This document shows, piece after piece, positions 3,738-33,258 of a DNA stretch of 64,000 bases; position 1 is the stretch's first letter, and each line of letters begins with the position of its first letter. Location: the NCBI GenBank assembly GCA_018883245.1, contig VEQL01000003.1, forward strand, positions 80,478 through 144,477, read 5' to 3'. The position numbers were made by a program, and so were the translations under genes. A model generated the notes under the pieces. The model was not told where the DNA came from. It ran no database searches and was given only the letters and a program-made list of their open reading frames with translations. This DNA is from Chthoniobacterales bacterium (GTDB taxonomy: Bacteria > Verrucomicrobiota > Verrucomicrobiia > Chthoniobacterales > JACTMZ01).

Positions 3738-3835
3738 CGAGCGGGAATTTTAACGGGAAACGTCTTCCGTGTCACCGCGCGCTTCGGTTTCGCGCGCTTC
3801 CCATCGGGGCGTGCGTCCGGTTAAACTGCGTGTCC

Positions 3836-4720
3836 ATGGCAAAACCGGCACTCGGACGCGGGCTCGGCGCCTTGATTGCGCCTTCCAAGACGTCTCCTGC
3901 AACCGCATCCGCGGCTGCCGGGGAAGATCGCGTGCTCTCGGTGTCTCTTGCCAAAGTCGTCCCCAGCCCTCTGCAGCCGCGGACCACGTTTCCGGCCGAA
4001 CATCTCTCGGAACTTGTCGAATCCATCCGCGAGAACGGCATTATCCAGCCCCTCATCGTCCGTCGCGTCAACGGCCTCTACGAATTGATCGCCGGGGAGC
4101 GCCGCTGGCGCGCCTCGGGGCAGGCAGGCCTCAAGGAAGTGCCGGTCATCGTCCGCGAGGCGACCGATCTCGAGGTTCTTGAATTCGCCTTGGTCGAGAA
4201 TTTGCAGCGAGAAGACCTCAATCCGATCGAGGAGGCGCAGGCTTACAAAAGGCTCGCCGAGGAGTTCCGGCTCAAGCAGGAAGACATCGCCAAAAAAGTC
4301 GGCAAAAGCCGCGCCGCCGTTGCCAACACCATGCGCCTTCTGGAGTTGGATGCCGGGTTGCAGGCGCATCTCGTGCAGGGGCGCTTGAGCGTCGGCCATG
4401 CCAAAGCCCTGCTGGCACTGCCCTCGCACGAGGACCAGCAGGCTCTGGCCGAGCAGGTGATGAAGAGAGGTCTCTCCGTGCGTGCGACCGAGGATTTTGT
4501 GTCCGCACATCTGCGCAAAGAACGTCGACCGAGGCGCGGAAGCCGGGGCGCGCGCGAAGTTCCCGCGGCCGTGCGGCACCTTGAGAACCGTCTCCAACAG
4601 CGTCTCTCCACGCGCGTCGAAATACGCCACGGCGAGCAAAAAGGCCACATTGTCATAGAATACTATGGCAACGACGACTTGCAGAGGCTGCTGCACGAGT
4701 TAGGTTTGCCGGAAGAATAG
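3836..4720 (+). CDS. parB: Chromosome partitioning protein ParB/Spo0J
   Basis: ATG at 3836 (the track start at 3830 is GTG). Motifs LGRGLGALI, IQPLIVR, ELIAGERRWRA, and an HTH region. Confidence 0.9.
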   Translation: MAKPALGRGLGALIAPSKTSPATASAAAGEDRVLSVSLAKVVPSPLQPRTTFPAEHLSELVESIRENGIIQPLIVRRVNGLYELIAGERRWRASGQAGLKEVPVIVREATDLEVLEFALVENLQREDLNPIEEAQAYKRLAEEFRLKQEDIAKKVGKSRAAVANTMRLLELDAGLQAHLVQGRLSVGHAKALLALPSHEDQQALAEQVMKRGLSVRATEDFVSAHLRKERRPRRGSRGAREVPAAVRHLENRLQQRLSTRVEIRHGEQKGHIVIEYYGNDDLQRLLHELGLPEE

Positions 4721-10917: not shown

Positions 10918-11663
10918 AGCTGTCTGCCGCCTGCGCTGCTTTGCTAGTGTTCGCGGCATGGCCCCTGCATGCCGCCGGCGACTGGATCGAGCAGGGCGAT
11001 CTTCTCGACAAGCAGTTCAAGTCCGCGGAGGCGCTCGCCGCCTACGAAAGAGCAGCCGCTGTGGACCCGAACGATGCGGAATTGCAGCGCAAAATCGCCA
11101 AGCAGTATGTCGAGTTGGTGCTCGACGCCTCGTCGCGCAAGGAGCAGTTGCGTTTGGCCCAACTCGGCTACGACCGCGCGCTGAAAGCGAAGACGCTTGA
11201 TCCTTCGGACGCCGAGACGCGTCTGACCGTGGCGGTGGCCGCGGGCCGTCTCGCTTACTACAGCAGCGATCCGCGCGTTAAGATGGAGCTTTCCCGCGTG
11301 GTCAAAAACGAATCGGACGAAGCCCTGCGTTTGCGTCCGCGGTATGCGCTGGCTTGGCATTTCATCGGGCGCTGGCATTACGAGATGGCTACCTTGAATC
11401 CTTTGCTGCGCAGGGTGGCGGAGGCGATCTACGGCAAGCTGCCGCCCGCCTCGCAGGACGAGGCGATCCGCAATCTCGCCAGGGCCGTCGAACTCGAGCC
11501 CGATAACGCGCTCTTCCACGCCGAACTGGGGCGGGCTTATCTCGCCGCCGGACGCAAGGCCGAAGCGCGGCGCGAGCTGGAGAAATCGCTGTCGTTGCCC
11601 AACCGCAACCGCGATGATGCGGGGGCCCGGCAGCGAGCCAAGCAAGCCCTCTCGGAACTTTGA
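10914..11663 (+). CDS. Secreted TPR-like repeat protein
   Basis: GTG at 10914 overlaps the upstream stop (GTGA). Signal peptide [20 protein letters not shown]|AG, followed by an Ala/Leu-rich helical repeat protein with TPR-like spacing. Confidence 0.55.
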
Positions 11664-11667
11664 ATTT

Positions 11668-12780
11668 ATGGCGGACAAAAAAATCCTCATTTTCACCACG
11701 GGATTCGGCGACGGCCACAACAGCGCGGCGCGCAACCTGAAAGACGCGTTCTCGCAGATGCCGGGATTCGACCCCGAAGTCCACGACCCCTACGTCGAGG
11801 TCAATCCGCGCGCGTCCAAGACACTGCAGGTGGCCTACAATTTTTCCATCCAGCGCGTTCCGGTGACGTGGAAAGCGTTTTTCTGGCTTTATGACAAAAC
11901 TCCGGTCTTTGACTGGACGCTGCCCACCCTGGGCAACTTGAAGAAGGCGATGGAGAAGCTGGTGCGCGAAAAGCAGCCGGCGGCCGTGATCACGACCTAC
12001 CCCGTTTACAGCTACATCCTGAACGACCTGATGAAGAGCGGAGCGGTTCCCGCCTGCCCGCATTTTATGGTGGTCACGGACTCCATCGTGATCAACCGCG
12101 TCTGGAATCTCGCGCCGGCCGATTGGGTGTTGGTGGCCAATGAGCCGACGCTCGAGGCCATGGTGCGTGGCGGCACGCCGCGCGAGAAGATCGTGGTCAT
12201 GGGTTTTCCGGTCAGTCCGCGCTTCGAGGAACTGGCCCGCCGTCCGTTGCCCCCGGGTCCGCCGTGGGAGTTGCTTTACCTGCCCTCGGCAAGCCGGCGG
12301 ACGGTGGCTCGCGTGGTGCAGGGCCTCACCTCGCTGCCCGGGGTGAAGCTTTCCGTGGTGACCGGAAGGCACAAGCACCTGCATGCGTTTTTGAAGAAGC
12401 TCGACGTGCCGATGGCCTCGTTCACTTTGCACGGTTGGACCGACCGCATGCCCGAGTTGCTCGCGGACAGCCACCTTTTCATCGGCAAAGCAGGCGGTGC
12501 GATTGTTCAGGAGACGCTGGCCATCGCCCGACCGATGATCATCAGCCACGTAGTAGCCGGCCAGGAGGAGGGCAATGTGGAATTGCTCGCCGACCTCGGG
12601 GCGGGGGCGCTGGCCACGTCGCCGGATGCGATTGTGGGCACGGTGCGCCGCGCCATGCTGGAAAACGGCGGCGCGGAGTGGGCGCGCTGGCGGGAAAATC
12701 TCCTGCGTGTCAGCCATCCCGCCGCGGCGCGCCAAACGGCCGAGTTTGTCGCGGGCAAGCTGTCTCAGAACGTCGAGTAA
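11668..12780 (+). CDS. MGDG-synthase/UgtP-family (GT28) diacylglycerol glycosyltransferase
   Basis: N-terminus MADKKILIFTTGFGDGHNSAARNL is typical of the monogalactosyldiacylglycerol synthase N-terminal domain. The C-terminal half is GT-B. Confidence 0.7.
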   Translation: MADKKILIFTTGFGDGHNSAARNLKDAFSQMPGFDPEVHDPYVEVNPRASKTLQVAYNFSIQRVPVTWKAFFWLYDKTPVFDWTLPTLGNLKKAMEKLVREKQPAAVITTYPVYSYILNDLMKSGAVPACPHFMVVTDSIVINRVWNLAPADWVLVANEPTLEAMVRGGTPREKIVVMGFPVSPRFEELARRPLPPGPPWELLYLPSASRRTVARVVQGLTSLPGVKLSVVTGRHKHLHAFLKKLDVPMASFTLHGWTDRMPELLADSHLFIGKAGGAIVQETLAIARPMIISHVVAGQEEGNVELLADLGAGALATSPDAIVGTVRRAMLENGGAEWARWRENLLRVSHPAAARQTAEFVAGKLSQNVE

Positions 12781-13667
12781 GCGGCGGAGCCGGCGGCGTA
12801 TGTGCTGCGGGGCGACCACCCCATCACGCGCTGTGCATCGTCGAAAATGTTGCGCGTTTTGCTGCCGAGCTGGACGAGGATGACTTCCCGACCGCCGAGG
12901 GTCCCGCTCGAGACGAGGCAGCGTCCGGCTGCGAAGGTGTATCCTGTTTTCATTCCGGTGAAGGCAGGCGAGCGTTCCAGGAGTTTGTTGGTCGCTTTGA
13001 GCACTGTGACGCGGCCGCTGTTGTGTCGGAAGTAGGCGCGTGGTTGGCGCATGAACGTGCGCAGCACCGGCACGCGATAGGCGGCAAAGGCGATACGGGC
13101 CATGTCACGCGCGGTGGAATACTGCGGGGCCGGCAGGCCGTGGCTGTTGAGGAAATACGAGTTGCGGGCGCCCAAGGCCCACGCCGTGCGGTTCATGTCC
13201 GCGGCGAATGCCGCATCGCTTCCGCTGTGGTCGCGGGCGAGGGCGGTGCAGGCATCGTTGCAGCTTTTGACCATGATGGCTTCGAGCAGCGAGCGTCGCG
13301 TGTAACGCTCGCCGGCTTTGATCCCGAGCTTGGTCGGTTCGACATGAGTGTCCTCCGCGGCGATGGCGACAGGGGCGCCGAGATTCCCGCGCCGCGCCAC
13401 GAGCTGCGCGGTGAGAAGCTTCTGCGTGCTGGCGACTTGGCGGCGCTGGTCGGCATTCTTCTGGAAAAGAACTTCGCCGTTCCGCGCGTCGATGAGGATT
13501 GCGGATTCCGCGGTGAGTCCGGGCGCGTCGGAGGGCCAGACGGGCGCGTCGGAGGGTGCTGATGCGACGGGGGGAGCGGCGGGCTCGGCTCGGCGGACTT
13601 CAGGCGGCGGCGCGGTCGCGCATCCGGTGACAAAGACGAGGGCAAGAAGGGCGAAAAAGTGTTTCAT
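12765..13667 (-). CDS. D-alanyl-D-alanine carboxypeptidase (S11 PBP5-like) lipoprotein
   Basis: The internal ATG at 13667 gives the lipoprotein signal MKHFFALLALVFVTGC. SxxK (STQK) and KTG (KTGYT) motifs. Start overlaps the folE2 stop by 4 nt. Confidence 0.8.
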   Translation of the reverse strand: MKHFFALLALVFVTGCATAPPPEVRRAEPAAPPVASAPSDAPVWPSDAPGLTAESAILIDARNGEVLFQKNADQRRQVASTQKLLTAQLVARRGNLGAPVAIAAEDTHVEPTKLGIKAGERYTRRSLLEAIMVKSCNDACTALARDHSGSDAAFAADMNRTAWALGARNSYFLNSHGLPAPQYSTARDMARIAFAAYRVPVLRTFMRQPRAYFRHNSGRVTVLKATNKLLERSPAFTGMKTGYTFAAGRCLVSSGTLGGREVILVQLGSKTRNIFDDAQRVMGWSPRSTYAAGSAAYSTF

Positions 13668-15600: not shown

Positions 15601-16466
15601 TTGCGCAGGGTGATGTCCCGCAGCCGGGCCACGAGAAAACGGCTCAGCGCGAGGTAAAGCACAAGGACCGGCACGGTGACTACCAGTGCGCCGGCGGCAA
15701 AGATGCCGGGTTGTCCGTGCAGACTTTCGGTGTGGAGCATTCGCAAGCCGAGCGGAAGGGTGAAGAGAGAGGAGTCTTGGAGCAGGATTGCGGCGACGAC
15801 ATATTCGTTCCACGCGGCGGCGAAAGAGAACAGTGCCGTGACGGCCAGACCGGAGGCCGAAACGGGCAGGACCACGCGGAGGAATGTCTGCCCCGGGGTG
15901 CATCCGTCCATCGCCGCCGCTTCCTCGAGGCTCTCCGGAATGGTGTCATAGAAATTTTTCATCTGCCAGATGCAGAACGGCAGGATGGTCGCGAGGTAAA
16001 CGAGGATGAGTCCGAAAAAAGTGTCGGTCAGGCGCAGTTTGACCAAGACGAGAAAAATCGGCAGAAGCAGCATCGTGGCCGGAAAAATCTGGGTGACGAG
16101 CAGGGCGCGCAGGACGGTGAGTCGGCCGAAGAAATGAAAGCGGGACAGCGCGTAGCCTGCGGTGGCCGAAAGAGCGACGCCAACCAGCGTCACGGCAAGC
16201 GATACCAGCAGGGAATTCGCCAACCACCGGACGAACCCGGTTTCGGTGGCGAGCTGCACGAAATTGTCCATGCTGGCGTGCGCCGGCCAATGCCACGAGG
16301 TGGCGCCTGCGGGCATTGTCGGTGCGAGTGCGGCGACGAGGATGTGCCAGAGGGGAACCAGTGCCACGAGCGATGCCGCAACGAGTGCGAAATACGAGAA
16401 AATGCGGGCCACAGCGCCGTGGGCAAGCAGGCTCTTCGGGGCAGGGGCGGAACTGTCGGTCGCCAT
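15597..16466 (-). CDS. Carbohydrate ABC transporter permease (MalG/BPD_transp_1 type)
   Basis: Six-TM permease with the EAA loop (LEEAAAMDGCTPGQTFLRVVLP). ATG at 16466 (the track start at 16484 is GTG). Confidence 0.8.
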   Translation of the reverse strand: MATDSSAPAPKSLLAHGAVARIFSYFALVAASLVALVPLWHILVAALAPTMPAGATSWHWPAHASMDNFVQLATETGFVRWLANSLLVSLAVTLVGVALSATAGYALSRFHFFGRLTVLRALLVTQIFPATMLLLPIFLVLVKLRLTDTFFGLILVYLATILPFCIWQMKNFYDTIPESLEEAAAMDGCTPGQTFLRVVLPVSASGLAVTALFSFAAAWNEYVVAAILLQDSSLFTLPLGLRMLHTESLHGQPGIFAAGALVVTVPVLVLYLALSRFLVARLRDITLRN

Positions 16467-16575
16467 GACGCGGATTGAGCGCACCAGAAAATCCGTCGTT
16501 TGTGCAAGGAAGAAGCGTGCCCCGCGTCCGCATATCTTGACAGCGCCGGACGCAGCGCTTGAAATTTTCGTTCCG

Positions 16576-19104
16576 ATGCGCCGTGCCGTCCTGCTTTTTT
16601 GGCCCCTGCTTTTCGCCGCGAGCGTCTGCGCGGAAAAAAGCGTCTATGACGCGTCCGGGGCGGACGGCGTGCGCTACCGGATCAGCCGCGCGTCCGACGC
16701 ATGGGAAATCCGCGTCACAGGTGCGGGGGTTGACGGGCCGGACCAGAGACTGTTTGCCGCCGCGGGAGCGCGGGGTAAGTCCGGCAGTCCGTTGCTTCCG
16801 CCGGATCTGTCCTCGGGTGCAGTGTGGCTGCCTTTTCCCGCGGATCTCGTGCTTGTTTCCGGTGCGTCGCAGCCGGGGGGCGGAACCGTCCTTTATCGCT
16901 GGAAGCAAACGCAATGGGGCGCGGCTGAAAAAGCGGACGGAGTTTCCGTGGCGCGCGAGCCGGCGCAACTCGTTATGCGCATCCCGTTTTCTCTCATTGG
17001 TGGCGACGCGAGCTTCGATCTGTCCGTTTTCCTCAAAGACATGGCGGCGGACGCGGGGCGCGGACGCTTTTACGGCTCGCTCGATCCGGCGGACGGCGCG
17101 GGTTCGGGCGAGCGCGTGGTCCGGCATCATCTCGCTGTGGAGTCCGCAAAGAGCGGCGTCCGTTTCCGCACGGGCGGGCGCACCGATCCCGCGTCCCCGA
17201 AGGTGCGCATTTACCAGCTCTTGCCGCGCTTGTTCGGCAACACCAACGAAACCCGCAAACCGAACGGGAAGCTTGAAGAAAACGGGACGGGAAAATTTGC
17301 CGACATCAACGCGGCGGCGCTCGACGGGCTGAAAGCCATGGGATTCACGCACCTCTGGCTCACGGGAGTGATGCAGCAGGCGACCGCCACGGACTACACC
17401 GCGATCGGTGAACCCGCCGACGACGCCGATCTGCTCAAGGGCTTGGCCGGAAGTCCCTATGCAGTCAAAGACTGGTTCGATGTCTGTCCCGATTACGCGG
17501 TCGATCCCGCGAAACGACTGGAGGAATTCAAGGCGTTGGTCGGGCGCGCGCATGACCGCGGTCTCAAGGTGCTGGTGGACTTTGTTCCCAACCATGTGGC
17601 GCGCAGCTACGCATCGACCGTCAAGCCGGAGCTTTCCTTCGGCGCGAAGGATGACCGCGGAAAATTTTTCAGTCCCGGGAACAATTTCTATTACCTCACT
17701 GCCGATTCGCATGCCGAGGGTCCGGGTGCGCCGTTGCGGCTGCCGACCGTCGATGGCGACGGGCGCGCAACCAGTCCGACCGTGCTTGCCGCGGGCGGTG
17801 GGGATGGTCTTTTCGATGGCGAGAAAGACCACGGCCGGGTCACCGGGAACAATGTGGTGAGTTGGTCGCCCGGTCCGGATACCTGGTATGAAACGGCGAA
17901 GCTCAATTACGGCTACAACTTCCGCGCGGCGGAAAAGGACGCACGGGCTTACCCCCACGGATCCCGTCCGGACATCGCGGTGCCGGACACATGGGAAAAA
18001 ATGGATGCCGTCGTTGCCTATTGGCAAGGGCTCGGCGTGGACGGGTTCCGCGCGGACATGGCCCACATGGTTCCTCCGGAATTCTGGAGTTGGCTGATCT
18101 CTCGCGCGCGCGAACGCAATCCGCAGGTTTACTTCGTTGCCGAAGCCTACAACGACGACGAGGCGAAAGTTGCGTCGGGGGATTCGCAGGCCGCGAAAGC
18201 GACCGGGGGCAATGTCCTGTTGGAGTTGCTCAAGAGCGGATTCGACGCGGTTTATGACGATCCGTCCTATGACACCTTGAAGAATGTCTATCTCGGCAAA
18301 GCCACGGCCAACGACCTGGACAGTGCGGCGCGGCGCCCTTTCCTCTTCGACAATTCGCTCCGTTACGCGGAGAACCACGACGAAGTGCGCCTGGCGTCGC
18401 CGTCCCAATGGGGCGGTCTGGGGCCGCGCGTCGGCATGCCGGTGTCCGCGCTCCTGTTCGGAATGTCGCGGGGTCCGGTGATGGTTTACCACGGCCAAGA
18501 GGTCGGGGAACAGGCCGCGGACTCCGAGGGTTTCGGCAAGGATGATGCGCGCACCACGATTTACGATTACTGGTCCATGCCGGAATTCACCAAGTGGGTG
18601 AACGGCGGGAAATTCGATGGGGGCAAGCTGTCGGCAGAGCAGCATTCTTTGCGCGATTTTTACCGCCGGTTGCTTGCCGCTGTTGATGCCCCTGCCTTTC
18701 GCGACGGCGGCTTTTATCCGCTCAACCCGGACAACCTGGACAATCCCGGTTTCGGCCGCGTCGATGGAGGGAAGAGCGGCGAGTGGCTCTACGCCTATCT
18801 GCGCCATGACAGCGCAAGCGGCCAGCGGATGTTGGTGGTGGTGAACCTCAATCCCGGCAAAGCATTGCGCGATGTGCGCATCCGTTTTCCGAAAACGGCC
18901 ATGCGTTTCCTCGGCTGGGATGCGCTTGCCGGATCGGAAAAAGCCGGCGTGGTTGCCCAAGATCGGCTCGGCGAAGTTCCCGGGGAAACAGCCGAGTTGG
19001 TTTCGACGCCCGCCGAGATGGAAAATCCAGGTCTTCTCATCAAAGAGCTTCAACCCCTCACCGCGGCGTATTACGAATTGTCGGCTCCTGCGGCCTCGCA
19101 TTGA
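16576..19104 (+). CDS. GH13 alpha-amylase family glycoside hydrolase with long N-terminal non-catalytic region
   Basis: ATG at 16576 gives the signal peptide MRRAVLLFWPLLFAASVCA. GH13 conserved regions VDFVPNHVA, GVDGFRADMAHMV, YFVAEAY, AENHDEVR. Confidence 0.8.
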   Translation: MRRAVLLFWPLLFAASVCAEKSVYDASGADGVRYRISRASDAWEIRVTGAGVDGPDQRLFAAAGARGKSGSPLLPPDLSSGAVWLPFPADLVLVSGASQPGGGTVLYRWKQTQWGAAEKADGVSVAREPAQLVMRIPFSLIGGDASFDLSVFLKDMAADAGRGRFYGSLDPADGAGSGERVVRHHLAVESAKSGVRFRTGGRTDPASPKVRIYQLLPRLFGNTNETRKPNGKLEENGTGKFADINAAALDGLKAMGFTHLWLTGVMQQATATDYTAIGEPADDADLLKGLAGSPYAVKDWFDVCPDYAVDPAKRLEEFKALVGRAHDRGLKVLVDFVPNHVARSYASTVKPELSFGAKDDRGKFFSPGNNFYYLTADSHAEGPGAPLRLPTVDGDGRATSPTVLAAGGGDGLFDGEKDHGRVTGNNVVSWSPGPDTWYETAKLNYGYNFRAAEKDARAYPHGSRPDIAVPDTWEKMDAVVAYWQGLGVDGFRADMAHMVPPEFWSWLISRARERNPQVYFVAEAYNDDEAKVASGDSQAAKATGGNVLLELLKSGFDAVYDDPSYDTLKNVYLGKATANDLDSAARRPFLFDNSLRYAENHDEVRLASPSQWGGLGPRVGMPVSALLFGMSRGPVMVYHGQEVGEQAADSEGFGKDDARTTIYDYWSMPEFTKWVNGGKFDGGKLSAEQHSLRDFYRRLLAAVDAPAFRDGGFYPLNPDNLDNPGFGRVDGGKSGEWLYAYLRHDSASGQRMLVVVNLNPGKALRDVRIRFPKTAMRFLGWDALAGSEKAGVVAQDRLGEVPGETAELVSTPAEMENPGLLIKELQPLTAAYYELSAPAASH

Positions 19105-23266: not shown

Positions 23267-25516
23267 TCAGGCTTTCTTCGACCGGCGCCAGCGAACAAAG
23301 CCCGCGCCGCCGAGCAGCATCGCGGCGGCAGCCCACGTGCCGGGTTCGGGGATGATGCCGAACTTGAGGTCCAAGTTGTTGCCGTTCTGGACCAGATAGA
23401 AGCTGCCCTCGCCGAGCGGGTTGAGGAACCCGCCCGTTCCGTTGAAGGCTGCGACGTTCAGATTGAAGTTAGTGCTGTTGAAGCCATTGATGCCGCCGGC
23501 CGCGTTGAGGATGGTCCAAGTGTAGGTGGTCAACTTGTTCGTGGGTGCGGTGAAATTGACCGCGTTACCGTTGGTGTCGGGTGAAACGCCGGAGAGCGAC
23601 CAGAGGTTGATGTTGAACTTGTTCGTATCCGAAAGGCCGGTCAGGTCGAGCGCGCCCGTGATATTGATCAAGTCCCAGCCGGTCGAACTGCCCGCCGCGC
23701 CGGTCGCGTCATGGATTTGCCAGTTGTAGTTGCCGCCGCCGTCCCACGTGGCGTTGCCGGCGATGGTTTGCGTGCCGGGTGAATTGCCCGGGCTGATCGT
23801 GCCGCCGGAGCCGACGATGAGGCCTCCGATCGATCCCGAACCACCGAGGGTGGCTCCGCTTTCCACGGTGAAAATGCTGCTATTGACCGCCCCGTTCACC
23901 ACCATGGTCCCGCCGCTCACGGTCGTCGCGCCGGAATAAGTGCTGGTGCCGGAGAGGGTGAGTGTGCCCGCGCTGTTTTTCGCCAGGCTTCCCGCGCCCG
24001 AGATCGCGCCGGACGAATTGCCCGATTGGACGGTCACGACTGTCGCGTTGCTGATGTTGATGTTGCCGCCGGTGTAGGATTTCACGGCAGTGTTGGCTCC
24101 GGTGACATTGACCGTGCCACCCGAGACGTTGGTGATCGTGGTGTTGTTGCCCGCCACGTTGAGTGTCGCGGTGCTGGTGACGGAAGCCACCGTGCTGTTC
24201 GCCGAGGAGAGTGTCGTCGTGCCCGCGTTGAACTGCGCGCCGCTGACGGTGCCGGCATTGGTCAGCGTGCCGCCGTTGATGATCAGGGCATTGGCGATGC
24301 TGAAGTTGGCGAGGTCCAGCGTGGTGCCGCTGGCCAGCGTGACCGAACCGGACCCGAAGGCCGACGCGTGGCCCGCCGTCAGTGTCCCCCCGTTGAGCAA
24401 CGTGCCGCCGCTGAAGGAATTGGAGGCCGCCAGCGACAATTCGCCGTCACCGGTTTTGGTCAGGCCGCCGGCGCCGCTCATGGCGCCGCTCACGGTCGTG
24501 TTGTTGCTGCCGCTGATGGTGAGCTGGTTGCCGTTGTTGTTGATGGCGCCCGCGAAAGTGAGTTCGCCCGCGGAGGCGTCGAAGGTTTGCGCCGCTCCCA
24601 ACGTGACCTGGTTGGAGAAGGTCTGGCCGTTGGCACTGAGGTTGACGATGCCGTTCGAAACCGTCATGGCATTGCCTGAAATGGAGAAATTTCCGGCGGT
24701 GTTGGTGAAGATGATGCTTTTGAGCTGCAGCGACGAGGAGGAGTTGGTGGTGTTGGTCATCCACGCACCCGCAAAGACCAGCGTGTCGCCGTTCATCGGC
24801 GTGTTGTTGCCGTTCCAGTTGCCATAGGCATTGGTGCTTTCGTAATCATTCCAATTCCCGGTGAAGAGGTCGCCGATCCAAGTCAAAGTGGAGGCCGCGC
24901 GGAGGGTGGCGGTGCCGCTCAGACTGGGGTTCTGGTTGGTTCCGCCTGTCGCGCTGATGGCGGTAGCTCCCTGGTTCCAGCCGTCTCCCCAGGCGGCGGC
25001 ACGAAACGTAGTCATCGTGGTGGCCGCGTTGGATGCGAAAGTGACGTTGAGCGGAGCACCGCCCGCATTCGTGCTGACCGAGTCGGTCGAGGCCAGTGCG
25101 GTGGCGTAATTGTCCCTGTTCCAATACCAACCGGCGCTGGTTCTGCCGTTTGTGGTCCGGTAGAAAATACTGTCGAGGGCCGAGAAACTGAGGGAGTAGT
25201 TGGCCGCCGGCGAGACGGTGAATTGGAAATAATCGCCATTGAGCAATGCCATGGAAGCGCTGCTCGCGCCGAAGCTGTTGGCGGCGAGCGTGTTCAGGAC
25301 ATTGACGGGAGAGATGCCGTAGCCCAGAGTCAGGGGCGTCGCCGCTACACCTGTGGCCGCGTAATTCGTGGCAGCGCTGGCTTGGCCGCCTGTGTCGTAA
25401 ACGCCCCATCTCACGAGATTCGACTGCGCCCAGCCCGGAGAACTTGCGGTGGCAAGCAGCAGAGTGGCGAGGAGGAGACTGCGGTGGAGACCGCTCGGCT
25501 TGGGCTTCGTAGTCAT
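23267..25516 (-). CDS. Autotransporter-associated beta-strand-repeat protein with PEP-CTERM sorting signal
   Basis: 749 aa with a signal peptide. Repeated G-x-L-x-L/T-G-x-N-T-Y-S-G-x-T units (e.g. GTLTLSGTSTYSGATTVSGGTMVVNG). C-terminal IPEPGTWAAAAMLLGGAGFVRWRRSKK (PEP motif, TM, basic tail). Confidence 0.8.
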   Translation of the reverse strand: MTTKPKPSGLHRSLLLATLLLATASSPGWAQSNLVRWGVYDTGGQASAATNYAATGVAATPLTLGYGISPVNVLNTLAANSFGASSASMALLNGDYFQFTVSPAANYSLSFSALDSIFYRTTNGRTSAGWYWNRDNYATALASTDSVSTNAGGAPLNVTFASNAATTMTTFRAAAWGDGWNQGATAISATGGTNQNPSLSGTATLRAASTLTWIGDLFTGNWNDYESTNAYGNWNGNNTPMNGDTLVFAGAWMTNTTNSSSSLQLKSIIFTNTAGNFSISGNAMTVSNGIVNLSANGQTFSNQVTLGAAQTFDASAGELTFAGAINNNGNQLTISGSNNTTVSGAMSGAGGLTKTGDGELSLAASNSFSGGTLLNGGTLTAGHASAFGSGSVTLASGTTLDLANFSIANALIINGGTLTNAGTVSGAQFNAGTTTLSSANSTVASVTSTATLNVAGNNTTITNVSGGTVNVTGANTAVKSYTGGNINISNATVVTVQSGNSSGAISGAGSLAKNSAGTLTLSGTSTYSGATTVSGGTMVVNGAVNSSIFTVESGATLGGSGSIGGLIVGSGGTISPGNSPGTQTIAGNATWDGGGNYNWQIHDATGAAGSSTGWDLINITGALDLTGLSDTNKFNINLWSLSGVSPDTNGNAVNFTAPTNKLTTYTWTILNAAGGINGFNSTNFNLNVAAFNGTGGFLNPLGEGSFYLVQNGNNLDLKFGIIPEPGTWAAAAMLLGGAGFVRWRRSKKA

Positions 25517-25578
25517 GGTAGTAGTTCAGAAATTGCTGCGCTCATGATCGCAGCTTGAGAAAGATGCACGAGATTTTT

Positions 25579-25609
25579 GGGACGAATCGGTGGAAAAGCG
25601 GGACGAATC
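25579..25609 (-). promoter_or_regulatory. Candidate LytTR-type operator: two GATTCGTCCC repeats (read on the minus strand) with 21-bp periodicity
   Basis: The plus strand reads GGGACGAATC at 25579-25588 and again at 25600-25609. The reverse complement matches the element at 28270-28300 at 26 of 31 positions, including the spacer. It lies in the divergent intergenic region between 23267..25516(-) and the HK gene. Confidence 0.5.
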
Positions 25610-25688
25610 TGCGGAAGGTCACGGTGTGGTGCGCGATGACCTTTACGCGGTCTTGTCTTTTGCGTCCTCCGCGCGTTACGTGCGCGTG

Positions 25689-27524
25689 ATGTCACGACCG
25701 GTCCGGATCACGCCTTGGTGTTTGTGCGTCGCGCTGTTTGTGTGGTTGCCGGCGATGGCGCGTGCGGCGGAACCGTCGCCGGTGGTCATCGACGGGCAGC
25801 CTTTTCTCGCCGAGCTCGGACCGCATCTCGCGTTGCTGCAGGACCCCTCGGGCGCGCTGACGATCGATGACGTGCTGACACCGGGGCAGGCTTCGCAGTT
25901 CGTGCCCGCATCCGTGCCGGTGCCGACGTTCGGCTTCACCAAGGCCGCGGTCTGGATGCGCTTCGAGATCGAATCGCGCAGCGCGCGTGACGAACCGCTA
26001 ATGGTCGAGTTGGGTATGGCGCGGATGAGCCGGTTCGAATGGTATGTGGTGGCCGACGGCCGGCTCGAGCAGGGCAGGCAAACGAACCACCGACCGGGTT
26101 CATTGCGGAGCGGGGATGGCTGCCGATATCCGACGTTGTCGCTGGTTGTGCCGGCCGGCGGGAAACGGACGGTCTTGGCGCGTGCGCAGACGGATACCTC
26201 GATGTGGTTGCCCTTGACCGTGGGGTCGCCGCTGGAGTTCGACAATTTCACCGCGCGGCGCGACTTCCGCGATTTCGTGCAGGTGGGATTTTGTGCCGCG
26301 TTGTCTTTGCTCGGATTCGGGCTCTGGCTGGCGGGCGGGCGCAACCGGCAATTCCTCGGCGTGGGGGTGGCCATGGCCTTCGGGTTGCTGCATGCGATGA
26401 TCTTCAACGGTCTCTATGTCTGGTTCGGTGGCCCGTGGCCTGAGTGGTTCTCGCGTCAGGGTGCGCTGCTCTGCTCCATGCTCTTCACCATCGTCTTCAT
26501 CAAATTCAACGAAGACTTCCTCGGCTGGAACGCATTGTGCGCGGCGCAGAGGCGGGTGTTGGCGGCCAGCTATGTCGTGGGCGCTATCGCGTTGGCCATC
26601 GGACTTTTTCTGCCCTACGGCATCGCGGTGAAATTCCAGTTGCCGCTGCAGCTTCTCGCTCTCGGCGGTGCGGCCGGCGTGGCCGCGACGCAGTGGGTCC
26701 GTTGCCGGGGTGCACGCCTCGGCTTGTTCACCACCGCGTGGCTCATTTTTCTCGGATCGCTCGGTCTGCTCGTCATGCAGTTCAACGGCCTTCTTCCCGT
26801 GCTCCTGTCGCCGGCCGACGTGATGCGCATTATTGTGCCTTCGGTCTTCGTGGTTTTCCTGCTGGCCAGCGCCAATTCCTACCGCGCCGTCCTGCAGATG
26901 CAGACGCAGGTGGCGGAATTGCGCGAGGCCGAGACGTCGGCTCGTCTCGAGTCGCTGCGCTACCAGCTCAATCCGCATTTTCTGTTCAACACGCTCACCT
27001 CGATCCAGGAACTTGCGCACGAGGCACCGGCGCGCATCCCGCCTCTCGTCGCGCGTCTGGCCGACTTCCTGCGTCTACGACTCAAGCCGGAGCCGTTGCC
27101 CGTCATCACTCTGGCGAAGGAGTTGGAATCGGTGCGCTCCTACCTCGAGATCGAGCAGGTGCGCTTCGAGGAGCGGCTGAAGGTCGACTATGACATCTCT
27201 GCCGAGGCCGCCGCCTGTGCGTTGCCCGAGATGGTGCTCATGCCTCTCGTCGAGAATGCCGTGAAATACGGCTTCGAAGATTCCGACCGCGTCGGGATCC
27301 GCCTGATGGCGCGCGTGCAGGACGGCCGCTTGAACATTCGGGTGGAGAACAACGGTTCGTTGCACGAGGGGCGTCGCCGCGGCTCCGGCGCCGGGGTGGG
27401 GGTGGAAAACATCCGGCGGCGCCTCGAACTGCGCTACGGCAGCGCGGCCCGTTTCGATTTGCGGCAGGAGGGCGGACACGTGGTGGCGGAGGTGGAAATT
27501 CCGGCACAGACCCCGCAAGTATGA
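25689..27524 (+). CDS. Sensor histidine kinase, 7TMR-DISM-type N-terminus with LytS/His_kinase + HATPase C-terminus
   Basis: ATG at 25689 gives a signal peptide. A periplasmic beta-rich domain is followed by about 7 TM helices, then LNPHFLFNTL (LytS-type phosphoacceptor) and an ATPase with the NAVKYG box. Stop overlaps the RR start (ATGA). Confidence 0.85.
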   Translation: MSRPVRITPWCLCVALFVWLPAMARAAEPSPVVIDGQPFLAELGPHLALLQDPSGALTIDDVLTPGQASQFVPASVPVPTFGFTKAAVWMRFEIESRSARDEPLMVELGMARMSRFEWYVVADGRLEQGRQTNHRPGSLRSGDGCRYPTLSLVVPAGGKRTVLARAQTDTSMWLPLTVGSPLEFDNFTARRDFRDFVQVGFCAALSLLGFGLWLAGGRNRQFLGVGVAMAFGLLHAMIFNGLYVWFGGPWPEWFSRQGALLCSMLFTIVFIKFNEDFLGWNALCAAQRRVLAASYVVGAIALAIGLFLPYGIAVKFQLPLQLLALGGAAGVAATQWVRCRGARLGLFTTAWLIFLGSLGLLVMQFNGLLPVLLSPADVMRIIVPSVFVVFLLASANSYRAVLQMQTQVAELREAETSARLESLRYQLNPHFLFNTLTSIQELAHEAPARIPPLVARLADFLRLRLKPEPLPVITLAKELESVRSYLEIEQVRFEERLKVDYDISAEAAACALPEMVLMPLVENAVKYGFEDSDRVGIRLMARVQDGRLNIRVENNGSLHEGRRRGSGAGVGVENIRRRLELRYGSAARFDLRQEGGHVVAEVEIPAQTPQV

Positions 27525-28255
27525 AGCCGGTGCGTTGCCTCGCTGTCGATGACGAGCGCCTTGCGCGCCGGCATGTCGTGCGTTTGCTTTCCACGCGCCC
27601 GGACATCGTGGTGGTGGGCGAAGCGGGCAGCAAAGCCTCCGCCCTGCGGGCCATTCGCGAGCACCAACCGGAATTGCTCCTGCTCGATGTGCAGATGCCG
27701 CGCGGTGGCGGTTTCGACGTGCTTGCCGCCTTGGACAACCCCCCGCATGTGATCTTCGTCACCGCATTCGACCGTCACGCCACCCACGCCTTCGAGGTCA
27801 ACGCGATCGACTTCCTCCTCAAACCGATCAACGAGGAACGTTTCCACCGTTCCCTCGATCGCGCGGTGCGGCTCATCCGCAGCGGCGCACTCGATGTCGC
27901 GGCGGTCAGGCCGCAATTGCAACCGGACGATCTCGCGCTCGTGCCGCTCGGCGGATCGGGGCGCTTTGTCGGCGTGGACGACATTGTTCTTGTCGAAGCC
28001 CAGGGAAATTACTCGCGCATCACCACGCGCGACGGGAAACACCTCACCGCGCGGCAGACGCTCAAGCAGTGGTCTGCCTGCCTGCCGCCGGAAATGTTCG
28101 TGCAGCTCGATCGCGGGCTTATCGTCAATCGTCACTGCATCCGCACGGCCGAATTTTCCGTGCGCTCGGCGCTGGTCAGGCTCGGGGAGCACGGCCAGAA
28201 ACTGCATTTGGGTGCGGCCGCGGCCTCGCGCTTGCGCGAATTGCTCGCGCCTTGA
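27521..28255 (+). CDS. LytTR/AlgR-family response regulator
   Basis: Receiver domain (VDDERLAR..., LLLLDVQMP, FVTAFD). C-terminal LytTR DNA-binding domain (LVEAQGNYSRITTRDGKHLTARQTLKQW). Confidence 0.9.
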   Translation: MKPVRCLAVDDERLARRHVVRLLSTRPDIVVVGEAGSKASALRAIREHQPELLLLDVQMPRGGGFDVLAALDNPPHVIFVTAFDRHATHAFEVNAIDFLLKPINEERFHRSLDRAVRLIRSGALDVAAVRPQLQPDDLALVPLGGSGRFVGVDDIVLVEAQGNYSRITTRDGKHLTARQTLKQWSACLPPEMFVQLDRGLIVNRHCIRTAEFSVRSALVRLGEHGQKLHLGAAAASRLRELLAP

Positions 28256-28269
28256 GACATTATCGCGCC

Positions 28270-28300
28270 GATTCGTCACGGTTTTACGCCGATTCGTCAC
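28270..28300 (+). promoter_or_regulatory. Candidate LytTR-type operator: two GATTCGTCAC repeats with 21-bp periodicity
   Basis: CGCCGATTCGTCAC occurs perfectly at 28266-28279 and 28287-28300. The element sits between the RR stop (28255) and the PEP-CTERM gene start (28342). An ATAAAT -10-like hexamer lies at 28320-28325. Confidence 0.5.
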
Positions 28301-28341
28301 ATGTTTTTCGACGACACAAATAAATCGCGCTTCAGTGAAGC

Positions 28342-29049
28342 ATGCGCAAGTTGCCCATTTTCCTCGCCGCTGTAGCCACACTGGCCTTCGTTCCCGTGCA
28401 AGCCGCGATCATTTTCACCGTCAACGGCACCGTGACGACAGCGGCCGCCGGATGGAACCTCAACGACCCGGTGACGTTCACTTGGACATTGGCCGGCAAC
28501 ACGCCCGAAGCATCAGCCGGCGCCACGACCATGACCTGGTCTGAGGAACTGTCCACGCAACCGGTCCTTTTCGCCAATGTGACCGGCACCGGACTGACGG
28601 GGACTTATACCCGGCCCGTCCAATTCCTCGGCAGTCCGTATTCTTTTCTCCAAGTGAATCTCGAGCCAGCGACCCTCATTTACGCAGGAACCGATGCGGA
28701 GTTTATCGGGCTCTACGCGCCGAACAGCTCTCAAGTGTTCAGGGTCTTTGCCAACGTAGGAGCCGCGTTCGGTTATGCCATGCAAAATCCCGCGCCGTCG
28801 CCCGATACCTACTTTCCGAGCTATTTGGGAACATACAGCTCGGTCACGACTTCATCCTATCCCATCCAAAGTTCCGTCAGCACCGCGAGCGGAACGATGG
28901 AGTTTAGCCCGACCTCATTCACCATTTCCCAAGTCACAGAACCCGTTCCCGAACCCGGCACCTGGGTCGCCGCGGCGCTGCTCGCCGGCGGTGCGGCTTT
29001 CGTGCGCTGGCGCAAACGCCGCGACGAAGGGCCGAAAGAAGCAGCCTGA
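28342..29049 (+). CDS. PEP-CTERM sorting-domain secreted protein (hypothetical)
   Basis: Signal peptide MRKLPIFLAAVATLAFVPVQA. C-terminal VPEPGTWVAAALLAGGAAFVRWRKRR. No other recognised domain. Confidence 0.75.
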   Translation: MRKLPIFLAAVATLAFVPVQAAIIFTVNGTVTTAAAGWNLNDPVTFTWTLAGNTPEASAGATTMTWSEELSTQPVLFANVTGTGLTGTYTRPVQFLGSPYSFLQVNLEPATLIYAGTDAEFIGLYAPNSSQVFRVFANVGAAFGYAMQNPAPSPDTYFPSYLGTYSSVTTSSYPIQSSVSTASGTMEFSPTSFTISQVTEPVPEPGTWVAAALLAGGAAFVRWRKRRDEGPKEAA

Positions 29050-29052
29050 ACG

Positions 29053-31341
29053 ATGCGCGCCCGCAACCTGAAAACCCCGCGCAAGTTCAGCGTTGTCATG
29101 GCGCCGCCTTCCGCGATCGCCGGTTTTTTCCTTGCGGCCTTTCTCTTTCTTGCTCCCGCCGCGCAAGCGGCGGACGGGACATGGAGCGGGGGTTCGGGCA
29201 GCTTGTGGAGCGACACTGGCAATTGGAGCGCGTCGCCGGTGCCGGGTTCGGGCAACACGGCGACGTTCAATAGTGCCGGCAACGGCAACACCACCATCGA
29301 TTTGGGCGTGGGTGTGACGATCAGCAACCTTGCGTTTGATACCGCGAATGCCGCGGCTTACACGATCGGTTCGGGTGCGGTCGGTTCACAGACGAACACC
29401 CTCAATAACAGCAACGCTGTCATCGCGGTGGCCGGAACGGTCGCCAATAGCCAAGTCATCAACGCCAACATCGTGCTGGGCACCGCGATCACGGGCACGA
29501 CGCGCATTGCCAATGACGCTTCTGGCGCCAGTGGTGTGGCTCTGAATTTGGCCGGCAACATCACCGGCGGCACGGGAGGAACGGCAGGGACAAAAACCGT
29601 GATTGTTTCCGGGACGGGTGCGGTGAACCTCCAAGGCGCCATAACCAGAGGCGGAGCGAGCAGCCTCAATTTGTTGAATCTCGGAACAGGAACTATGACG
29701 CTCAGCGGCAGTGCCACCAGCGTTCTCAGCACCCTGCGGGCCACGAACTCAAGTGGTCGCATCATCGTGGATGGTCAAACCGTCAACGTGAGCTCTAACT
29801 CACAATTCGGAAATAGCAGCGGCAACGGAGGAAGTTTTGAACTGAGATCGGGAAGCGCAACATTCTCCAATGGCCTCACAGGCACCGGTGCCTACGCTGC
29901 CCAGGAAGTTAAAATCACCGGCGGAACATTCACTGCCAGCACCGTCTCCGCGACCAACATCGTGGTCAACGGCGGAACTTTTTCCAGCGGCATCACGCGA
30001 GGTGCGTTCACGCTCGATGGTTCAGCGGCTGCCGCCTACATCGGCGCCAACATTGCGTCGAACACTCCCCTCGTAAATCTCGTGCAGGGCACGCTCGGCG
30101 CGAAGGTGGCATCCGTTGTCATCAATAACCCCAGTCTCACTTTGTCTGGCGCAGAAGTGACAATTAAGGCTGCCGATGCCGGCGATGTGGCACGCACCAT
30201 AAGCATCTGGAGCCCCGTTTCCGGAGCCTATGGATTTACGAAGACGGGCGGTGGAGCGCTGAAGATCGAGACAGCTGCCACTAATGCGATCGATAGTCCG
30301 GCGACACTCAACACCTACAGCGGCACGACCACGCTGGAAGCCGGGCAGCTGATTCTAAACAAACCCACGGCTTTGGGCACTGGCGCCTTCGTCATTCTCG
30401 GGGGCTCTATTGACTGCACGACCTTCATGTATACGAACGTCACTCTCAGCAACAACAATGCGCAGAGCTGGAACGGTGACTTCGCCTACGTCGGTTCCGT
30501 CACAAATTTGAACCTCGGCGCAGGCGCGGTGACGATGAACGCCAGCCGCACGGTCACCGTGAGTAACAACGAACTCACCGTGGGCGGCGCGATCAGCGGA
30601 TCCGGCTACGGTTTGACAAAGGCGGGCGCGGGCACGCTGAACCTTACCGGCGCGAGCACCTATTCGGGCGCCACGGCGGTGAACGCGGGCACGCTCAAGG
30701 TGAACGGATCGGTGGACAGCAGCGTGACCGTGAACAGCGGCGGCACGCTGGCCGGCAGCGGCTATGTCGGCGGGCTCATCGTCGGTTCGGGTGGCACGAT
30801 CAGTCCGGGCAACTCTCCGGGCACGCTCACGGCCACCAACGCGGTGTGGAATGCCGGCGGCAACTACAACTGGCAGATCTATAACGCCACGGGCGCGGCC
30901 GGTTCGGGTTGGGACTTGCTGACCGTCACCGGAACACTCGACCTGTCCGCACTTTCCGTCGGCAGCGAATTCAACATCAACATATGGTCCTTGTCGCAGG
31001 TCACACCCGACGTGGACGGCGAGGCGATCAACTTCAACCCGGCGCAAAATTACTCTTGGACCATCGCCACCGCGTCGGGCGGTATTACCGGCTACAGCGG
31101 CACCAGCCAGTTTTTGATCAACACCAACGCCACCAAAGGCGCCGCCGGTTTTGCCAACCTGCTTGATGGCGGTAACTTCTCCGTCGTTAAGAGCGGAAGT
31201 AATCTCAACCTTGTCTTCACCTCGGCCAGCGCCGCGGTCCCCGAACCCGGCCCATGGGCGGCGGCAGCGCTGCTCGCCGGCGGCGCAGGCTTCGTGCGCT
31301 GGCGCAAACGCGCGAATGTTTCCCAAGGGCAGGGAACGTAG
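29053..31341 (+). CDS. Autotransporter-associated beta-strand-repeat protein with PEP-CTERM sorting signal
   Basis: 762 aa with a signal peptide. Same repeat type as 23267..25516 (e.g. GTLNLTGASTYSGATAVNAGTLKVNG). A paralogous C-terminal module (GGLIVGSGGTISPGNSPGT...NYNWQI...) is followed by VPEPGPWAAAALLAGGAGFVRWRKR. Confidence 0.8.
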   Translation: MRARNLKTPRKFSVVMAPPSAIAGFFLAAFLFLAPAAQAADGTWSGGSGSLWSDTGNWSASPVPGSGNTATFNSAGNGNTTIDLGVGVTISNLAFDTANAAAYTIGSGAVGSQTNTLNNSNAVIAVAGTVANSQVINANIVLGTAITGTTRIANDASGASGVALNLAGNITGGTGGTAGTKTVIVSGTGAVNLQGAITRGGASSLNLLNLGTGTMTLSGSATSVLSTLRATNSSGRIIVDGQTVNVSSNSQFGNSSGNGGSFELRSGSATFSNGLTGTGAYAAQEVKITGGTFTASTVSATNIVVNGGTFSSGITRGAFTLDGSAAAAYIGANIASNTPLVNLVQGTLGAKVASVVINNPSLTLSGAEVTIKAADAGDVARTISIWSPVSGAYGFTKTGGGALKIETAATNAIDSPATLNTYSGTTTLEAGQLILNKPTALGTGAFVILGGSIDCTTFMYTNVTLSNNNAQSWNGDFAYVGSVTNLNLGAGAVTMNASRTVTVSNNELTVGGAISGSGYGLTKAGAGTLNLTGASTYSGATAVNAGTLKVNGSVDSSVTVNSGGTLAGSGYVGGLIVGSGGTISPGNSPGTLTATNAVWNAGGNYNWQIYNATGAAGSGWDLLTVTGTLDLSALSVGSEFNINIWSLSQVTPDVDGEAINFNPAQNYSWTIATASGGITGYSGTSQFLINTNATKGAAGFANLLDGGNFSVVKSGSNLNLVFTSASAAVPEPGPWAAAALLAGGAGFVRWRKRANVSQGQGT

Positions 31342-31446: not shown

Positions 31447-33258
31447 ATGGAAAACGAAGAGCCGAACATTTTTGTAAAGACGGGATCCGCGGTGGCCGAC
31501 TTTTTCACCCGCTGGTGGCGCGAGGCGACGGGCCCGATCGAATGGCATCACGCGCAGACGCCATTCCATGCGGTTTTGCGTCGCGTTCTGCTGTGGGTTC
31601 CGGTGGCGGTTTTGGCGGCTGTGGTTTTCGGCTCGATCGGGTTGCACTTTTTTGTCGGCTGGCGGGCGCGCGATCTGGCACGCAAGGCGGTGGCCAGTGC
31701 GGAGGAGGGGCGGTGGCCGGCGGCGCAGGTGCAGATCGGTTCGGCCCGCAACCTCCGCCCTGAGGATCCGGCCGTGCAATGCGCGCTCGCGGTCATCGAG
31801 ACGAAGATGGGGTTGCCTTCGGCCGCAAAGACGTGGAGTCAATTGCCCGAAGGTTTTCAACTGACCAAGGAGGAACTCGAAGCGCGGGCCTTGGCCATGA
31901 TGCGCAACGGCGACGAACCGCAATATGCCGAGGCTCTGGCTGCGCTGGAGGAGGCCGGGTTCGGGGCCGAGGCTGCGGCCATCCGGGTGGAGAGGAATGT
32001 GTCCCGCGGCAATTTGCAGCAGGGTATCGCCGAAGCGCGTGCGGCTGTGCGGTCCTCTGACACCCCGGCCCACCGACTCACTTTGGCGCGTCTTCTGTTG
32101 GCCCGGCATGGTGTTTTCCTGCAAAGCTCGAACTCGCCCGGGCCCGAAGATCTCGCGGGTGCGAAGGAAATTTCGGACATCGCGGACTCTCTGCTGGGCG
32201 CACCCGAAGGCGAGCAACTCTTGGCTTTGATCTTCGCCAATTTGCGTCTTACGGGGAGCCAACGGCAGCGCTGGTCCGCCGCCGCATGGAAACGTCCCGC
32301 CCCGGACAACCCCGCTTTGCTCCCCGCCGCCACGGCTATGATCGCTGCCGGCGATGCCACAAGGGAGGAAATGACCAACCGGCTCAAAGCCGTGTATGCA
32401 GGGGCCGAGCCTTCACGGAAAACCGCCTTGGCCGCATGGCTGGTCATGCACGGCGGCGATCCCGAGGGTGCCCTGGTTTATCTGCCACCCGCGGAAGCAA
32501 CGCGCCATGCCAACGCGTTCCTCGCGCGCTGCGCAGCGTTGTCCTCGTTGGGCCGATGGGAGGAGTTGCGTGCGCTGGCCGAAGGACCTGGCAGCGTGCC
32601 TCGCAGCTTGATGTCCGCCGTGGCGGCGCAGGCGAACGCCAAACTTGATCGCGGAGCGCAGGCCGAGAAATTTGCGCAGGACGCCGTGCGCACCGCCGCC
32701 CGCGAAGGCACCATCGTCATGACCCTGCGCCTGCTCGACGAATCGGGATTCCGCGAACTGGTCGACAGGGAGGTTGTTGCGCTGTGCGGCGAAACCGGGA
32801 CATCGGAGCTTTTCTTCCGCTTGGCGCGCGAACGCTTCGGCCGCGGGGGGCAACCGGCAAGCCTGCAAGCCGCTTACGAACGTGCCGCCGGAGCTTCCCC
32901 GCACGCCACGGCCGTCCAGAGCCAACAACTTTATGACAGACTGCTCTCCGGGTCTCCTGTCGATCCACAGCAAACCGCCGCCGCGCTGGCCGCGTCGCCC
33001 ACAGATGTGAATCTTCGCCTGACGCACGCCCTCGCTCTGCTCAAAACCGGCCGTGCGGCCGAAGCCCTGGCCGTCTTCGATGAATTCGACGTTTTCGTCG
33101 AACAGTTGCCGCCCGGCCAGCAAGCCATCGCCGCCGCCATTCTCGGTGCCAACGGCCAAGGAAAGGCGGCAGAGCAACTGGCTCGCTCGCTCGACCCCGA
33201 CTATCTTGCCCCCGGTGAGTATGCCCTCATTGCGGAATGGCGGGCGGCCAAAGACTGA
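31447..33258 (+). CDS. Hypothetical N-terminally anchored, Ala-rich helical-repeat (TPR-like) protein
   Basis: ATG at 31447 (the track start at 31426 is GTG). One TM (VLLWVPVAVLAAVVFGSIGLHFFVGW) is followed by about 520 aa of Ala/Leu/Arg-rich helical repeats. No catalytic motif recognised. Confidence 0.5.
   Translation: MENEEPNIFVKTGSAVADFFTRWWREATGPIEWHHAQTPFHAVLRRVLLWVPVAVLAAVVFGSIGLHFFVGWRARDLARKAVASAEEGRWPAAQVQIGSARNLRPEDPAVQCALAVIETKMGLPSAAKTWSQLPEGFQLTKEELEARALAMMRNGDEPQYAEALAALEEAGFGAEAAAIRVERNVSRGNLQQGIAEARAAVRSSDTPAHRLTLARLLLARHGVFLQSSNSPGPEDLAGAKEISDIADSLLGAPEGEQLLALIFANLRLTGSQRQRWSAAAWKRPAPDNPALLPAATAMIAAGDATREEMTNRLKAVYAGAEPSRKTALAAWLVMHGGDPEGALVYLPPAEATRHANAFLARCAALSSLGRWEELRALAEGPGSVPRSLMSAVAAQANAKLDRGAQAEKFAQDAVRTAAREGTIVMTLRLLDESGFRELVDREVVALCGETGTSELFFRLARERFGRGGQPASLQAAYERAAGASPHATAVQSQQLYDRLLSGSPVDPQQTAAALAASPTDVNLRLTHALALLKTGRAAEALAVFDEFDVFVEQLPPGQQAIAAAILGANGQGKAAEQLARSLDPDYLAPGEYALIAEWRAAKD

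Follow-up and report, generated by a model that had tools for sequence, protein, structure and literature searches.

A phased direct repeat beside a LytS-type kinase/LytTR regulator operon as a probable operator of PEP-CTERM genes in a Chthoniobacterales genome

Proteins that carry the PEP-CTERM sorting signal belong to the largest and least understood surface-protein families of soil and freshwater bacteria. To our knowledge, regulation of these proteins has so far been proposed for Proteobacteria only, by way of sigma-54 and the PrsK/R/T proteins. The proteobacterial motif upstream of PEP-CTERM genes (Haft et al. 2006) was tied to a two-component system and a TPR protein, PrsK/PrsR/PrsT, in which PrsR is an NtrC-type sigma-54 activator whose motif includes a -24/-12 site; this motif was found only in Proteobacteria, and Verrucomicrobium was listed as lacking PrsK/R/T (PMC1569441). 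Regulators with a LytTR DNA-binding domain recognise paired direct repeats, each 9-11 nt long, with 11-13 nt between them; in the case of YpdB, the repeated sequence is GGCATTTCAT (PMC4847170). AgrA occupies such repeats as a dimer directly ahead of the promoters it controls, the centre of the proximal repeat being near -60 (PMC4227749), while the core recognised by AlgR is CCGTTCGTC (PMC4064291).

In the 64-kb stretch of Chthoniobacterales DNA analysed in this study (64,000 nucleotides, hereafter the window), the sequence GGGACGAATC occurs at 25579-25588 and again at 25600-25609, i.e. with a period of 21 bp. Read on the minus strand, the resulting 31-bp element (25579..25609) is GATTCGTCCC-gcttttccacc-GATTCGTCCC, a repeat pair of the form GATTCGTCCC-N11-GATTCGTCCC which aims at the gene 23267..25516, so oriented that 25600-25609 is the distal and 25579-25588 the proximal half-site. 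A twin repeat pair, GATTCGTCAC-N11-GATTCGTCAC, lies in inverted orientation at 28270..28300 on the plus strand, where it reads GATTCGTCAC-ggttttacgcc-GATTCGTCAC and is situated 15 nt past the stop codon of a response regulator gene and 41 nt ahead of the ATG at 28342. Both elements had been reported in a first-pass annotation of this DNA, and its coordinates, its minus-strand reading and its sequence of the twin were found to be correct when re-read from the sequence, as were the distances it gave from element to start codon (62 nt to the ATG at 25516, 41 nt to that at 28342 and 79 nt to the kinase ATG at 25689); a comparison by eye also agreed with its count of 26 shared positions out of 31, including 8 of the 11 in the spacer. 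A repeat search returned the 21-nt spacing for both pairs and extended the repeated unit beyond 10 nt, namely to 17 nt in the element at 25579..25609 (25579-95 / 25600-16) and to 14 nt in the twin (28266-79 / 28287-300). Additionally, the two elements constitute the longest inverted pair in the region 25000-29000, at 36 nt and 83% complementarity.

The degenerate 31-nt pattern matched twice in the window, at the two elements, and in none of 100 shuffles, which upholds the first-pass view that paired copies with a kept spacer exceed chance. Exact 10-mers repeated at a 21-nt offset were observed four times against 0.095 expected per window; two of these are the elements, and the other two are unrelated and located inside long ORFs. 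Exact direct repeats with a 21-nt offset and a sequence unlike the box were noted on the plus strand at 13520-13556 (16 nt, CGGGCGCGTCGGAGGG-ccaga-CGGGCGCGTCGGAGGG, within overlapping long ORFs) and at 2482-2512 (10 nt, GGGTGAGGAC, within long ORFs). A third, degenerate copy at 18239-18268 (plus strand; GATTCGACGC-ggtttatgac-GATCCGTCCT) was judged to be a chance occurrence, having a 20-nt offset and lying in the alpha-amylase-family ORF 16162..19104. A PWM scan of the 64-kb window detected no additional site above threshold, indicating that it holds only the two boxes. The bare 8-mer GATTCGTC is not enriched: its single copies outside the elements number four (at 32737, 34334, 39232 and 63601), as chance predicts, against about 4.5 expected in total, and the earlier figures of two single copies and an expectation of about two had to be revised accordingly.

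The two elements bracket a two-gene operon for a histidine kinase and a response regulator, and both of them face outward from it. The sensor histidine kinase (25689..27524, plus strand) is composed of 7TMR-DISMED2, 7TMR-DISM_7TM, LytS-type His_kinase and HATPase_c domains, and its ATG at 25689 is backed by conservation with the closest orthologous locus, L019. Relative to the window, the kinase orthologue of L019 bears an in-frame insertion of 165 nt (4016-4181) right after the conserved ATG, and the gene caller placed the start of this orthologue past the insertion. The response regulator (27521..28255, plus strand), which is the presumed binder of the box, is 100% identical to an NCBI protein from a Chthoniobacterales MAG (Verrucomicrobiota) and consists of REC and LytTR DNA-binding domains only (LytTR: PF04397, E=4e-13), with no sigma-54 domain. 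Its best NCBIfam match was BtsR, at 125 bits and thus under the cut-off of 246 for that model, while a PDB sequence search yielded matches to the receiver domain only and none to the LytTR domain at E<=1e-5, the latter domain being too divergent at this threshold.

The gene at which the element at 25579..25609 is aimed (23267..25516, minus strand) encodes a secreted protein of 749 aa, its presumed target, with a signal peptide, autotransporter-associated beta-strand (PATR) repeats and a PEP-CTERM sorting tail, IIPEPGTWAAAAMLLGGAGFVRWRR. The presumed first target of the twin is 28342..29049 (plus strand), encoding a signal-peptide protein of 235 aa with a PEP-CTERM tail, and the second gene of the same unit (unit 28342..31341; gene 29053..31341, plus strand) encodes a PATR-repeat protein of 762 aa, which again ends in a PEP-CTERM tail. 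The tails of all three proteins take the form VPEPGTW...GGAGFVRWRKR, and the three genes account for 3/3 of the genuine PEP-CTERM ORFs of the window, all of which stand behind the two boxes.

Relative loci were fetched through homologues of the response regulator, among them six Chthoniobacterales orthologues of 56-77% identity. Absence of the element from relatives had been named beforehand as an outcome that would speak against it; a box was present beside 6/6 of the orthologous regulator genes, in the form G[ATG]TTCGTC[AC]C repeated at 21 bp and in one or more copies per locus. These boxes are all intergenic and aimed at a start codon 41-78 nt downstream, and the first gene past the box encodes a signal-peptide PEP-CTERM protein in nearly all cases, the one exception being the box at 3797-3827 of L021, which precedes a 70-aa ORF and then the kinase gene. 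The earlier claim that each element is aimed at a gene for a beta-strand-repeat or PEP-CTERM protein thereby holds in the window as well as in the relatives. In L019, too, the box stands in the divergent region that separates the kinase gene from a PATR/PEP-CTERM gene, and pairwise alignment of this locus with the window revealed that the half-sites and the following CCCAAAAnTCTCG are kept, while the spacer and most other intergenic sequence have diverged. Retention of the half-sites together with divergence of the spacer is the footprint expected of a protein-binding site, and these comparisons indicate that the element is a real, conserved regulatory site.

A conserved accessory gene (31447..33258, plus strand) is located on the same strand as the unit behind the twin, 105 nt past the PEP-CTERM genes (85 nt if measured from an alternative GTG at 31426). 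The predicted structure of its product is that of a membrane-anchored, all-helical TPR-like solenoid protein of approximately 600 aa: the AlphaFold model (mean pLDDT 90.6) displays an N-terminal membrane helix followed by an all-helical solenoid, and all of the structural neighbours belong to the TPR-type repeat proteins. No Pfam or NCBIfam family, the PrsT model included, matched this protein. A homologue was identified in every fetched Chthoniobacterales locus of the kinase/regulator system, that for L023 being counted from an overlapping stretch of the same contig, L021. The accessory TPR-like protein may represent a functional analogue of PrsT. A gene for a 120-aa SpoIIAA-like protein (PF11964) also recurs in Chthoniobacterales loci, downstream of the PEP-CTERM genes that follow a box (L025 7400-7762; L021 9186-9548; L023 855-1217 and 10918-11280; L026 9825-10187); none was noticed among the window ORFs examined.

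Beyond the Chthoniobacterales, a genome scan with the regulator protein returned relatives of at most 39% identity, none of which is an orthologue, and it was of use only for Dyella. In two Dyella genomes (Gammaproteobacteria; regulators 37-39% identical), a small secreted-protein gene and a LytS-type kinase/LytTR regulator pair are divergent, and GATTCGTCAC-N11-GATTCGTCCC lies in the region that separates them. Arrays were furthermore present next to kinase/regulator genes in 3/3 Planctomycetia loci fetched via the regulator protein, and these loci include divergent arrangements in the order target, array, kinase. One planctomycete array aims at a VPEID-CTERM gene, another lies upstream of such a gene and one aims at an FGE-sulfatase-domain gene; since arrays precede VPEID-CTERM (PF27847) and FGE-sulfatase-domain genes, the box is not confined to classical PEP-CTERM tails. 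Planctomycetia arrays were recorded at 11612-11682, 3674-3743 and 13334-13406 of L147 and at 7536-7565 of L149, with half-sites of the form (C/G)(A/G)TTCGTCCC, and in both loci the arrays flank genes for LytS-type kinases and LytTR regulators, one of which encodes a kinase-regulator fusion. In L150, a regulator of 53% identity stands beside a classical autotransporter without a box, which weighs against the operator reading proposed below.

An exact-pattern scan of metagenome contigs returned at least 120 loci, mostly on GC-rich freshwater contigs that appear to derive from Planctomycetia, and the regulator from one of these contigs is annotated as a Planctomycetia MAG protein. Among the matches listed, arrays were composed of two half-sites in 42 cases, three in 11, four in 53, five in 2 and six in 1, and the steps between neighbouring half-sites measured 21 bp in 195/236 instances and 20 bp in 27/236. 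When a tailed ORF starting within 300 nt downstream was counted, a PEP-CTERM ORF was located downstream in the orientation of the box in 67 of the 101 evaluable cases among the matches listed, as opposed to 2 of 71 in the opposite orientation; these calls were made by a regular expression on crude ORFs and are approximate, yet the orientation contrast is nonetheless large. From array end to first start codon the median distance was 93 nt (among the matches listed), and some loci exhibited the kinase-regulator-box-target order of the window. Four to six phased half-sites were observed, among the matches listed, at 3884-3998 of L038 and in 55 other arrays (e.g. in L028, L033 and L039), implying the binding of more than one dimer. 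We know of no description of such four- to six-membered arrays for LytTR regulators. In another lineage (L072, L075 and L128), a box adjoining a kinase/regulator pair precedes a gene for a 162-aa protein that is not a PEP-CTERM protein and whose C-terminal sequence, as judged by eye, presumably resembles the small subunit of a [2Fe-2S]-binding oxidoreductase. The matches at L046, L108, L109, L119 and L124 are not regarded as regulatory boxes, having the look of unrelated, probably coding tandem repeats on low-GC contigs.

The 31-bp element is in our judgement probably the operator of the adjacent LytTR regulator (27521..28255), through which the adjacent PEP-CTERM gene would be activated; here we infer the regulator 27521..28255 as the binder, activation rather than repression, and the positions of the promoters. 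According to the proposed mechanism, the 7TMR-DISM kinase (25689..27524) would phosphorylate the regulator, two molecules of which would bind head-to-tail on the two 10-bp half-sites, and as these are 21 bp apart, corresponding to two helical turns, both would be presented on the same face of the DNA. The bound regulator, positioned just upstream of a weak promoter, would activate the PEP-CTERM/PATR gene 23267..25516, and the twin at 28270-28300 would act likewise on the unit 28342..31341 and possibly also on the TPR-like gene that follows it. The kinase/regulator pair and its two boxes would in this manner form a local switch for PEP-CTERM (exosortase-sorted) proteins. The first-pass proposal of paired regulator-binding repeats in the two promoters flanking the kinase/regulator pair agrees with all of the computational tests applied.

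A sigma-70 consensus scan of 25300-28500 found no promoter, and the proposed promoter positions therefore rest on the alignment of relatives. Downstream of the element at 25579..25609 the sequence is weakly promoter-like (TCGTGC ... GATCAT); weak promoters are common where an activator is required. In the aligned downstream sequences of several Chthoniobacterales sites, a TTGAC-like hexamer begins 7-8 nt past the proximal repeat, and TCGACG takes up this offset in the twin at 28270..28300. The aligned planctomycete set presents a positional TT at +18/19 and TAnAAT at +40-45, which would place the centre of the proximal repeat near -57, and the Chthoniobacterales geometry is approximately one helical turn closer. 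It is unlikely, though conceivable, that the box is a real operator at which the adjacent regulator represses, or both represses and activates, by occluding the PEP-CTERM promoter: the gap of only 41 nt between the twin and its ATG means that this site could overlap the promoter, in particular its -35 region, neither box is followed by a clear sigma-70 promoter, and AlgR, which has a similar half-site, represses some promoters, e.g. rhlI and rhlA (PMC4064291), but the TTGAC-like -35 hexamer of the relatives starts only past the proximal repeat, the planctomycete -35-like and -10-like signals are found entirely on the downstream side of the array in an AgrA-type activation geometry, and an array of as many as six half-sites ahead of a weak promoter is better suited to recruitment than to occlusion.

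The kinase gene may possess a promoter of its own. A candidate block at 25653..25688 (plus strand; TTGTCT, 17 nt, TTACGT, 7 nt, ATG), which is conserved with L019, directly precedes the kinase ATG and stands apart from the repeat element; it could serve as a constitutive kinase promoter, possibly giving rise to a leaderless transcript. The same geometry, with a -10-like hexamer about 7 nt ahead of the ATG, was observed at several PEP-CTERM genes in relatives (L021 6838 and L025 6848). Autoregulation of the kinase operon from the copy at 25579..25609, which had been raised on account of its proximity to the kinase start, is possible but unsupported, since in both the window and L019 the box is directed away from the kinase, yet L021 and L025 each have a box directed into the kinase operon.

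The identity of the binding protein may be approached from the regulators that accompany the box. A LytTR regulator is the only DNA-binding protein common to all box-bearing loci, and the regulators found next to a box represent at least three LytTR clades, between which the DNA-binding domain is only 27-33% identical. How closely the LytTR domain resembles that of the window regulator was tried as a predictor of the box and rejected, as regulators without a box are no less similar; similarity of regulator sequence hence does not explain the common motif. This diversity would suit a scenario in which the box is bound by a protein encoded elsewhere, either a LytTR paralogue or an unrelated global PEP-CTERM regulator, and in which adjacency to the kinase/regulator operon is incidental. 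We regard this as very unlikely, since the box flanks the operon in all six orthologous loci, all three planctomycete loci and both Dyella genomes, and since the 21-bp phasing is specific to LytTR sites (PMC4847170). Among the matches listed, a LytTR regulator was encoded on 13/120 of the metagenome loci and a LytS-type kinase on 9/120, and the 107/120 without a nearby LytTR gene would favour a distant binder, as would the presence, on another contig of the same MAG, of accessory TPR-like paralogues, which makes paralogous systems likely; against this, at least 13 regulator-bearing loci in 707 kb would be well above a rough estimate for a family of few copies per genome. Boxes with no regulator in view are either far from any regulator gene or on contigs too short to show one. 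Finally, that the repeats are non-regulatory, whether as coincidental repeats, as mobile-element remnants or as an RNA or terminator structure, is scarcely credible and effectively refuted by conservation and orientation bias: the two other exact 10-mers at a 21-nt offset in the window might suggest coincidence, but they reside in long ORFs and are unrelated in sequence, the shuffles never produced the 31-nt pattern, in dozens of loci belonging to two phyla the box is kept, lies between genes and has a direction, the region has no match in Rfam, and the repeats, being direct, form no hairpin.

A full-text literature search found no paper linking PEP-CTERM or exosortase to LytTR or LytR regulators, and the one paper found to mention 7TMR-DISM and LytTR together has the pyruvate sensor BtsS as its subject. 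Binding of the element by the adjacent LytTR regulator being the preferred reading, the element is of an ordinary kind, namely a further LytTR operator; that this box is linked to PEP-CTERM genes across Verrucomicrobia and Planctomycetes has apparently gone unreported. With moderate confidence, we further propose a LytTR-dependent 'PEP-CTERM box' across the Planctomycetes-Verrucomicrobia-Chlamydiae (PVC) superphylum, whereby phased GATTCGTCMC arrays would control the exosortase-sorted families, meaning PEP-CTERM and VPEID-CTERM surface proteins, and would be read by LytS-type-kinase/LytTR systems that in Chthoniobacterales come with a membrane-anchored TPR-like protein. If true, the PVC box would parallel the proteobacterial sigma-54 PrsK/PrsR/PrsT system without being homologous to it, with one class of sorted proteins brought under two unrelated regulatory systems by convergence, and it would close the gap that the 2006 work left for phyla outside the Proteobacteria. 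It would supply a concrete candidate regulator and a directly testable DNA motif, together with a kinase that, in the Chthoniobacterales loci, carries an extracellular 7TMR-DISMED2 sensor domain, and motif scanning could predict the regulon in uncultured genomes. The gene arrangement of the window would likewise be explained, as a sensor/regulator pair placed between two outward-facing, co-regulated surface-protein units.

Compared with the PrsK/PrsR/PrsT system, the locus is alike in possessing a conserved DNA motif upstream of many PEP-CTERM genes, and in that a kinase, a regulator and a TPR-like solenoid protein travel together. It differs in that its regulator is of the LytTR type without a sigma-54 domain, in that its TPR-like protein matches no NCBIfam model, that of PrsT included, and in the lack of a -24/-12 site: no TGGCAC-N5-TTGCW-like sequence was detected in 25517-25688 or 28256-28341, and the window-wide count of such sequences is below chance. 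The possibility that the box is the proteobacterial PEP-CTERM motif was therefore ruled out, there being no sigma-54 site and no NtrC-type regulator. The resemblance to AlgR of Pseudomonas aeruginosa lies in the pairing of a LytTR regulator with a LytS-type kinase and in the half-site, which shares TTCGTC; the window half-sites, (C/A)GATTCGTC, match CCGTTCGTC at 6-7 of 9 positions, and exact CCGTTCGTC is contained in some planctomycete half-sites. However, AlgR sites are often single, distant and orientation-independent rather than direct repeats with 12-bp spacing (PMC4064291), whereas the sites described here come as pairs or arrays with strict phasing, have a direction and are near the predicted promoter.

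The closest correspondence is with the LytTR operators of AgrA (P2/P3), ComE, PlnC/D and YpdB (at yhjX), which are likewise composed of two direct repeats of 9-11 nt with a period of approximately 21 bp. The element at 25579..25609 has exact 10-nt repeats, the very length of those of YpdB, an 11-nt spacer and a 21-bp period, its half-sites are kept while the spacer varies, and a LytTR regulator is encoded between the two boxes. As in the known systems, the site would be located just upstream of the regulated (here, predicted) promoter, and the regulator gene adjoins it in an operon with a membrane kinase. Conversely, the half-site in the present case is GATTCGTCMC, the kinase has a 7TMR-DISM sensor rather than a peptide-sensing or 5TM-Lyt sensor, the presumed targets are genes for PEP-CTERM surface proteins and not for quorum sensing, bacteriocins or transporters, and the relatives carry up to six phased half-sites.
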